Of a DNA stretch of 27,641 bases, positions 3,209 through 3,272 are shown one piece after another. How positions within the stretch are numbered: the first letter of the stretch is position 1; each line of letters opens with the position of its first letter. The notes under the pieces are model-generated. The model ran no database searches. It was not told where the DNA came from and saw nothing but the letters and a program-made list of their open reading frames with translations. The DNA comes from an uncultured Gammaproteobacteria bacterium. Lineage in GTDB: Bacteria; Pseudomonadota; Gammaproteobacteria; JABCZS01. Made by a program: the position numbers and the translations under genes. Location: contig CAZPAA010000001.1 of the NCBI GenBank assembly GCA_964584425.1, forward strand, positions 1 to 27,641, given 5' to 3'.

Positions 3209-3237
3209 TTGACTATCCTGATGCGCTCCTATACAGT
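3209..3237 (+). promoter_or_regulatory. Predicted sigma70 promoter of umuDC
   Basis: -35 TTGACT (3209-3214), 17-bp spacer, -10 TACAGT (3232-3237); SD AGGAGG at 3262-3267. Confidence 0.65.
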
Positions 3238-3261
3238 TTGATTATTGTTACAATAATCAAA
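3237..3261. promoter_or_regulatory. Perfect 25-bp palindrome, candidate repressor operator
   Basis: TTTGATTATTGT-T-ACAATAATCAAA (12-bp arms, 1-nt centre), running from the last base of the -10 box to the base before the SD. Confidence 0.7.
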
Positions 3262-3272
3262 AGGAGGTTGTG

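Follow-up and report, generated by a model that had tools for sequence, protein, structure and literature searches.

The window (the whole stretch of 27.6 kb of DNA that was analysed, G+C ~41%) carries an umuDC operon whose first gene encodes a long form of UmuD and whose predicted promoter is overlapped by a perfect palindrome. The features of the locus, all on the + strand apart from the strandless palindrome and its parts, are:

3209..3214, + strand: predicted −35 hexamer TTGACT (direct reading and consensus promoter scan)
3232..3237, + strand: predicted −10 hexamer TACAGT, the last T of which is the first base of the palindrome
3237..3261, no strand: candidate operator, perfect palindrome TTTGATTATTGT-T-ACAATAATCAAA (12+1+12)
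3238-3241: left arm of the candidate operator, TTGA
3242-3246: left spacer, TTATT
3247-3251: core, GTTAC
3252-3256: right spacer, AATAA
3257-3260: right arm, TCAA
3262..3267, + strand: Shine-Dalgarno sequence AGGAGG, 5 nt ahead of the ATG at 3273
3273..3803, + strand: umuD, long form, 176 aa and stop (Peptidase_S24, 1.1e-32; Pol V autoproteolytic subunit, 1.5e-48)
3273..3404, + strand: N-terminal module of UmuD, residues 1-44, with an RGGRRDGAGRP arm, a strand-like TKIIRVP and a helix at 32-44
3450-3455, + strand: codons of the predicted cleavage bond A60-G61 of UmuD
3558-3560, + strand: codon of UmuD Ser96
3669-3671, + strand: codon of UmuD Lys133
3803..5071, + strand: umuC, Y-family polymerase (PRK03609, 5e-125)

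The stop codon of umuD and the likely ATG of umuC share one nucleotide (TAATG, window 3801-3805), the same overlap as in E. coli umuDC, and the mechanically called umuC reading frame with its start at 3764 is probably 13 codons too long. Upstream, umuD is separated by a gap of 84 nt from a same-strand gene for a hybrid sensor histidine kinase (1239-3188). Since the closest protein matches to the window UmuD are the UmuDs of Legionella and uncultured Legionellaceae (63-76% identity), the window points to a Legionella-like organism. For two adjacent + strand reading frames of 303 and 734 aa (6658-7569 and 7581-9785) neither Pfam nor NCBIfam gave a significant family, and the sole match was a sub-threshold one to Roc GTPase.

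The first-pass annotation had proposed a TTGACT-17-TACAGT promoter followed by a perfect 25-bp palindrome ending at the Shine-Dalgarno sequence, and both were found again. The hexamer pair was recovered by the consensus promoter scan with 9 of 12 positions matching, and the repeat search returned two arms (3237-3248 and 3250-3261) that are 100% complementary with 1 nt between them and that end directly ahead of the AGGAGG. Under the limits applied (arms of at least 10 nt, loop of at most 4 nt) the palindrome is the sole inverted repeat in the window, and when the window was simulated 300 times with a first-order Markov model, a repeat with 12-nt arms arose in only 2 runs. As the annotation had stated, the palindrome overlaps the predicted transcription start, which is placed here at ~3244 inside the left arm; it also overlaps the predicted −10 hexamer. 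The annotation's reading of the neighbouring CTG (3218-3220) and CAG (3234-3236) as separated by 13 nt was likewise correct. A LexA box was rejected, as no CTGT-N8-ACAG with up to one mismatch occurs within 1.5 kb of the promoter; over the whole window four such matches were found versus 5.4 expected by chance.

In the window UmuD 60 residues precede the predicted cleavage bond; in E. coli UmuD there are 24. The S24 core matches the solved UmuD structure 8gmt (1.4e-36), and the A60-G61 bond, Ser96 and Lys133 are invariant in our alignments. Residues 1-45 are matched by no Pfam or NCBIfam model and by no solved structure, and a profile of this N-terminal module gave nothing significant against the PDB sequences, the best hits being a procarboxypeptidase (E = 0.038) and a sigma-A helix (E = 0.2). 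The AlphaFold2 monomer comprises a confident S24 core and a helix at 32-44; residues 1-30 are unstructured with low pLDDT, and no folded DNA-binding domain is seen. Conservation within the module is strong: G5, G6, R8, G12, R13, T25, R29 and P31 are invariant among 28 close relatives and again in an alignment of 51 sequences combining Legionella-type, SUP05/methanotroph-type and Acinetobacter searches, and E23 (at least 90% conserved), S33 and L42 are nearly invariant. The resulting motif is RGGxRxGAGR[PK]…(Y/F)GExTKxIRVPxS, followed by the helix. No LexA winged-helix domain (LexA_DNA_bind) was matched in the window. UmuD scored 91.8 against the LexA model TIGR00498, which is below the cut-off of 110.95 and covers residues 27-172 only, and tblastn of E. 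coli LexA against the window matched the S24 part only.

Both the palindrome and the module have counterparts in the UmuDAb system of Acinetobacter. From transcriptomics, EMSA and mutagenesis the UmuDAb operator was defined as TTGA(N4)GTWAC(N4)TCAA (21 bp), in which the 5-bp core is essential and outweighs either arm, at least one arm being needed (PMC11332147), and most umuDC and umuC promoters of A. baumannii have this motif across their transcription start (PMC12242105). Operator binding, repression and RecA-dependent cleavage have all been demonstrated in the Acinetobacter system. Repression in A. baumannii also uses DdrR, which is encoded divergently from umuDAb and described as restricted to Acinetobacter, and the TetR-family co-repressor EppR. 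The exchange E24K in UmuDAb derepresses the regulon and K40P/N41P also impairs repression; for binding, dimerisation matters more than the modelled helices, mutations of which raise KD only 2.5- to 3-fold.

The UmuDAb sequence was retrieved by BLAST of the published 37-nt EMSA probe against PLSDB, yielding three A. baumannii chromosomes (NZ_CP077849.1, NZ_CP104448.1 and NZ_CP064203.1; 3.6-4.1 Mb, filed there as plasmids). The reading frame beside the probe (203 aa, L084:1574-2185, starting MPKKKEFEHGGARENAGRKAQFNEPTKVIRVPESQVNFIKNWLL…) is UmuDAb: both ends agree with the cloning primers that were published, and the residues E24, K40, N41 and A83-G84 are found at the published positions. BLASTP aligned it with the window UmuD over the full length (45% identity, E = 6e-44), and in this alignment window residues 3-44 correspond to UmuDAb residues 8-49. 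Window E23 is the equivalent of UmuDAb E24, so that E24K falls on the nearly invariant glutamate of the module, and K40P/N41P falls in the module helix, whose counterpart in the window protein is the predicted helix 32-44. UmuDs of 192-193 aa encoded on Acinetobacter plasmids also carry the module, together with exact N4 operators (TTGATTATGTTACATATTCAA and TTGATTTTGTTACAAAATCAA).

With UmuDAb (Hare, Aranda, Witkowski, Candra et al.) the window system shares a long S24 UmuD with an Ala-Gly bond and a Ser/Lys dyad, the homologous N-terminal module (GGxRxxAGR[KP]…EPTKxIRVPxS and helix), a site that combines TTGA/TCAA arms with a GTWAC core and lies, in the window by prediction, over the promoter or start site of umuD(C), and a host lineage reported to be without LexA. 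Several features differ. The window site, TTGA-TTATT-GTTAC-AATAA-TCAA, has spacers of 5 bp and a total of 23 bp, versus 4 bp and 21 bp for the UmuDAb operator. The window protein has 176 aa and a predicted cut at A60-G61, versus 203 aa and A83-G84, the region from helix to cleavage site being ~25 aa shorter. Unlike umuDAb, the window umuD is the first cistron of an intact umuDC operon, and its lineage is Legionellaceae-like rather than Moraxellaceae. No ddrR was found divergent from umuD or elsewhere in the window (best tblastn E for DdrR 0.2). We therefore regard the window system as a variant of the UmuDAb type rather than as belonging literally to the UmuDAb-DdrR system of Acinetobacter.

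The association between site and module was analysed in 85 loci: a scan restricted to one genome per species gave 80, to which the window and four loci from plasmids or chromosomes were added. In 72 of these loci the UmuD is long and has the module; in the other 13 it is of the ordinary short kind. Matches to the template TTGA-N4/5-GT(N)AC-N4/5-TCAA were scored within 150 nt upstream of umuD, with the remaining 474 kb of locus sequence as background. Allowing one mismatch, the site preceded 52/72 long and 0/13 short umuD genes (11 background matches); with two mismatches these values rose to 64/72 and 1/13 (112 background matches). Among 104 non-redundant half-sites the consensus was t-T-T-G-A-W-T-W-n-T-G-T, in which the arm G, the arm A and the core G are each present in at least 99 half-sites. 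The window site can be regarded as a consensus operator because it agrees with this half-site at every conserved position on both halves. It is base identity and not pairing that is conserved, for the spacer positions are variable and often non-complementary. The two halves lie 0 or 1 bp apart (GTAC or GTNAC, about equally frequent among the loci), which fits a half-site made of one arm and half the core. Spacers of 5 bp occur in 59/64 sites and are the majority form outside Acinetobacter; spacers of 4 bp were found only in three Acinetobacter loci, in Dechloromonas (L078) and in a weak two-mismatch site (L050).

The hosts include Legionella steelei, tunisiensis, worsleiensis, maioricensis, norrlandica, santicrucis, tucsonensis and drozanskii as well as L. 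israelensis and L. longbeachae with plasmid-borne copies, SUP05/Thioglobus, Methylococcales and Cycloclasticus, Acinetobacter, Thiobacillus, Methylophilaceae and Dechloromonas, the marine Alphaproteobacteria OCS116, PS1 and Puniceispirillales, Verrucomicrobiota and one Synechococcus elongatus plasmid. The position relative to the promoter also recurs. In the window, on Legionella chromosomes and plasmids and on the Acinetobacter plasmid L081 the operator is directly adjoined by a −10 hexamer, which reads TATCAT, TAGAAT, TACTAT or TATGAT in the Legionella loci and L081. On L081 a TATCAT is followed at once by the operator in the same layout as in Legionella, and in Legionella-type loci a TTtACA −35 hexamer lies at the same offset from the operator as the TTGACT of the window.

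Eight loci with a long umuD (L024, L025, L036, L038, L045, L058, L060 and L072) have no site within two mismatches. In L024 and L036 divergent look-alikes such as cTGATATACGTGCATTATTCAt were seen by eye, and the planctomycete forms of long umuD may use a diverged operator. In L206, the L. longbeachae conjugative plasmid pB1445CHC_73K, the genes form a cluster of SRAP peptidase, umuD, umuC and dinB, and the left operator arm, ATGA, merges with a TATGAT −10 hexamer, as it does in L011, L012 and L014. In SUP05/Thioglobus, Methylophilaceae and PS1-type loci (L042, L044, L046, L062, L070, L039 and several metagenome loci) the operator directly abuts the annotated ATG, which suggests leaderless mRNAs or start codons located further downstream. 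With 4-bp spacers the linker between the Gly/Arg arm and the IRVP strand has 10 aa in 4/5 cases, and with 5-bp spacers 13 aa in 40/59 cases; a covariation of linker length and operator spacing was discarded, the independent lineages being too few for it to count as evidence.

In the reverse direction, metagenome contigs were scanned with the DNA pattern alone (TTGAWTNNTGTN{0,1}ACANNAWTCAA). For 34/83 sites a reading frame with the N-terminal module begins within 45 nt (33 detected by regular expression, one by eye). The remaining sites fall within long reading frames, in DNA poor in reading frames, at the ends of contigs or near unrelated reading frames, from which their distance varies, and are read as chance occurrences. 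No other gene family recurred among the 83 sites. The three other one-mismatch sites in the window are located inside reading frames or between convergent genes. When a wider regulon was sought in the background matches of the loci and in the metagenome scan, only one stand-alone umuC emerged besides long umuD. Since no other family recurs and this umuC is the sole notable extra target, the operator appears to be dedicated to the long-umuD cassette; for UmuDAb, too, the reported regulon is limited to error-prone polymerase genes and UmuDAb's own regulators. The stand-alone gene (L005, 851-2196) is convergent with umuD, has an operator-like site (TTGAGTTTGTACATTTTTAA) 64 nt upstream and is reminiscent of the umuC genes of A. 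baumannii that are regulated separately. On one metagenome contig (L126, Ga0209491_10094274) four operator-like sites form two tandem pairs between 1338 and 1507 (TTGAATAGTGTAACATTATTCAA and TTGAATAATGTTACACTATTCAA, repeated), with no reading frame of at least 60 aa nearby.

Taken from sequence and from the parallel with UmuDAb, the palindrome is probably a UmuDAb-type operator ("atypical SOS box") through which the adjacent long UmuD would repress its own promoter until RecA*-dependent cleavage relieves the repression; we assign this reading a probability of roughly 0.78. The operon's own first product is the candidate repressor because the downstream umuD encodes a UmuDAb-type N-terminal module, the most telling point and one that the first-pass annotation had not noticed. 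In the proposed mechanism a dimer of the long UmuD would bind the operator via its two ~45-aa N-terminal modules and block transcription initiation, which fits the reported weight of dimerisation over the modelled helices in UmuDAb. Upon DNA damage, RecA-ssDNA filaments would stimulate self-cleavage at A60-G61. With the modules cut off from the dimeric S24 core, operator affinity would be lost and umuDC transcribed. The released UmuD' would then join UmuC to give Pol V. A single polypeptide would thus act as sensor, repressor and precursor of a polymerase subunit, and we propose that the cassette would therefore be independent of LexA and portable between hosts. What the sequences show directly is the anatomy and conservation of the site, its place on the predicted −10 and start, the homology of site and protein to the UmuDAb system, and how closely site and module go together. 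Binding, repression and cleavage-dependent induction, as well as the choice of the window UmuD over a paralog as the binder, are what we infer from the Acinetobacter precedent.

The proposed scheme resembles the action of LexA on E. coli umuDC in that an S24 repressor would sit on a promoter palindrome, would be inactivated by RecA*-stimulated self-cleavage and would have umuDC as its target. It departs from LexA in that the window UmuD has no winged-helix DNA-binding domain (Pfam yields Peptidase_S24 only), the window motif has a conserved central core that LexA boxes do not have, and repressor and regulated polymerase subunit would be the same polypeptide. Autocleaving S24 repressors of error-prone polymerase genes are also represented by HdiR of Streptococcaceae and by the non-canonical LexA of Bacteroidetes (PMC8565304). 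[quoted passage not shown]

Of the alternatives, the one that survives best keeps the site as UmuDAb-type and assigns the binding to a paralog encoded elsewhere, the 176-aa UmuD being only a regulated polymerase subunit. It has a precedent in the N-extended UmuDs of ~164 aa in A. baumannii, whose operons are repressed in trans by the 203-aa UmuDAb, so that an N-terminal extension by itself need not mark a UmuD as the repressor, and only 27.6 kb of the genome is in view. The window UmuD, however, keeps both elements linked to repression, the conserved glutamate and the helix after IRVPxS, the latter being retained where the 163-aa long UmuD of L003 is without it. Moreover, site and gene stay together on plasmids and in different phyla, which favours self-sufficiency, and we consider a separate binder improbable.

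A further possibility, which we judge very unlikely, is that the palindrome serves an unrelated repressor such as a divergent LexA, an EppR-like TetR-family protein or a phage-type repressor. Palindromes at promoters are indeed generic repressor sites, and the umuDC promoters of A. baumannii carry a second site of TetR type for EppR. The window site, however, does not fit CTGT-N8-ACAG and matches the sequence that UmuDAb is shown to bind. The same sequence stands before long umuD in Verrucomicrobiota, Alphaproteobacteria and Cyanobacteria, groups whose LexA motifs are reported to differ, and it is confined to the long genes, with 0 of 13 short umuD preceded by it at up to one mismatch and 1 of 13 at up to two.

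A role of the inverted repeat as a hairpin in the leader RNA, masking the ribosome-binding site or attenuating transcription, can practically be dismissed: although the repeat ends at 3261 directly ahead of the AGGAGG and could form an A/U-rich stem of 10-11 bp if transcribed as a whole, the stem would be incomplete with the predicted start inside the left arm, the predicted leader 3244-3290 folds unexceptionally (−8.4 kcal/mol; z = −1.06 versus shuffled sequence), specific bases (TTGA, T-G-T) are conserved rather than pairing, operator and start codon are anywhere between 0 and 81 nt apart in the different loci, and there is no terminator-like T-run. The hairpin was rejected on the leader fold and the conservation pattern. 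The first-pass annotation had already argued from the 1-nt centre that a DNA operator was the better reading, a sound argument that the position of the start and the leader fold reinforce. Its broader suggestion of a non-LexA operator akin to the Acinetobacter UmuDAb site gains support, at the level of sequence comparison, from arms and core, conservation, position and the missing LexA box. The check it had recommended on orthologous umuD genes turned out in the same direction, since the site's sequence, and not just its pairing, is kept before orthologous as well as distant long umuD genes.

Beyond the loci described so far, the profile of the N-terminal module matched 1839 cluster representatives (E ≤ 1e-3) in 1.84 billion proteins. 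These include apparently complete mini-proteins of 49-60 aa that consist of the module and one helix (P0397, P0425, P0462, P0409, P0473 and P0485) and fusions of the module to non-S24 or degenerate S24 C-termini without the A-G/GFPSP motif (P0503, P0494, P0399 and P0428); many further matches are truncated or frameshifted metagenome fragments. As the module is found in mini-proteins and joined to other C-termini, it may represent an autonomous DNA-binding unit. In PHROGs only families of unknown function match the module. One of them, the phage family phrog_21736, matches the N-terminal 60 aa of UmuDAb (L084:1574-1753) with E = 6e-12 and the window module (3273-3422) weakly (0.009), and the module is thus present in phage proteins. 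The xIRVPxS segment with its helix may resemble ribbon-helix-helix proteins (Arc, Mnt) in their strand and helix A. As a working hypothesis, we favour the Gly/Arg arm, which is invariant, together with the IRVP strand over the modelled helices as the parts that contact the bases, and contacts of this kind may help to explain why helix mutants of UmuDAb show only the small rise in KD mentioned above.

UmuDAb and its operator have been described as unique to Acinetobacter or to Moraxellaceae, and in the searchable, incomplete literature no report was found of UmuDAb-type proteins or operators in Legionella or elsewhere. A review lists L. pneumophila among the pathogens without an SOS response or LexA system (PMC3820712). 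We lean towards the view that UmuDAb belongs to a large and horizontally mobile family of umuD(C) cassettes that repress themselves, each with its own operator (TTGA-N4/5-GT(W)AC-N4/5-TCAA). DNA would be bound by a previously undescribed ~45-aa module, made of a Gly/Arg-rich arm, a short strand and one helix instead of a LexA-like winged helix; this module is also found on its own in mini-proteins of 50-60 aa. Members of the family would occur in Legionellaceae, SUP05, methanotrophs, marine Alphaproteobacteria, Verrucomicrobiota and Betaproteobacteria and on cyanobacterial plasmids, and Legionella, so far regarded as SOS-less, would then possess a damage-inducible mutagenesis switch.

If this is true, the GGxRxGAGR arm, which is invariant, and the IRVP strand would deserve more attention than the modelled "HTH" helices of UmuDAb, and about 100 natural variants of operator and protein would be at hand for learning how UmuDAb reads DNA. 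A LexA-independent, damage-inducible switch for error-prone polymerases would be widespread as a self-contained cassette of gene and operator, borne on plasmids in Legionella, Acinetobacter and Synechococcus, and its presence would bear on stress-induced mutagenesis and the evolution of resistance in Legionella.
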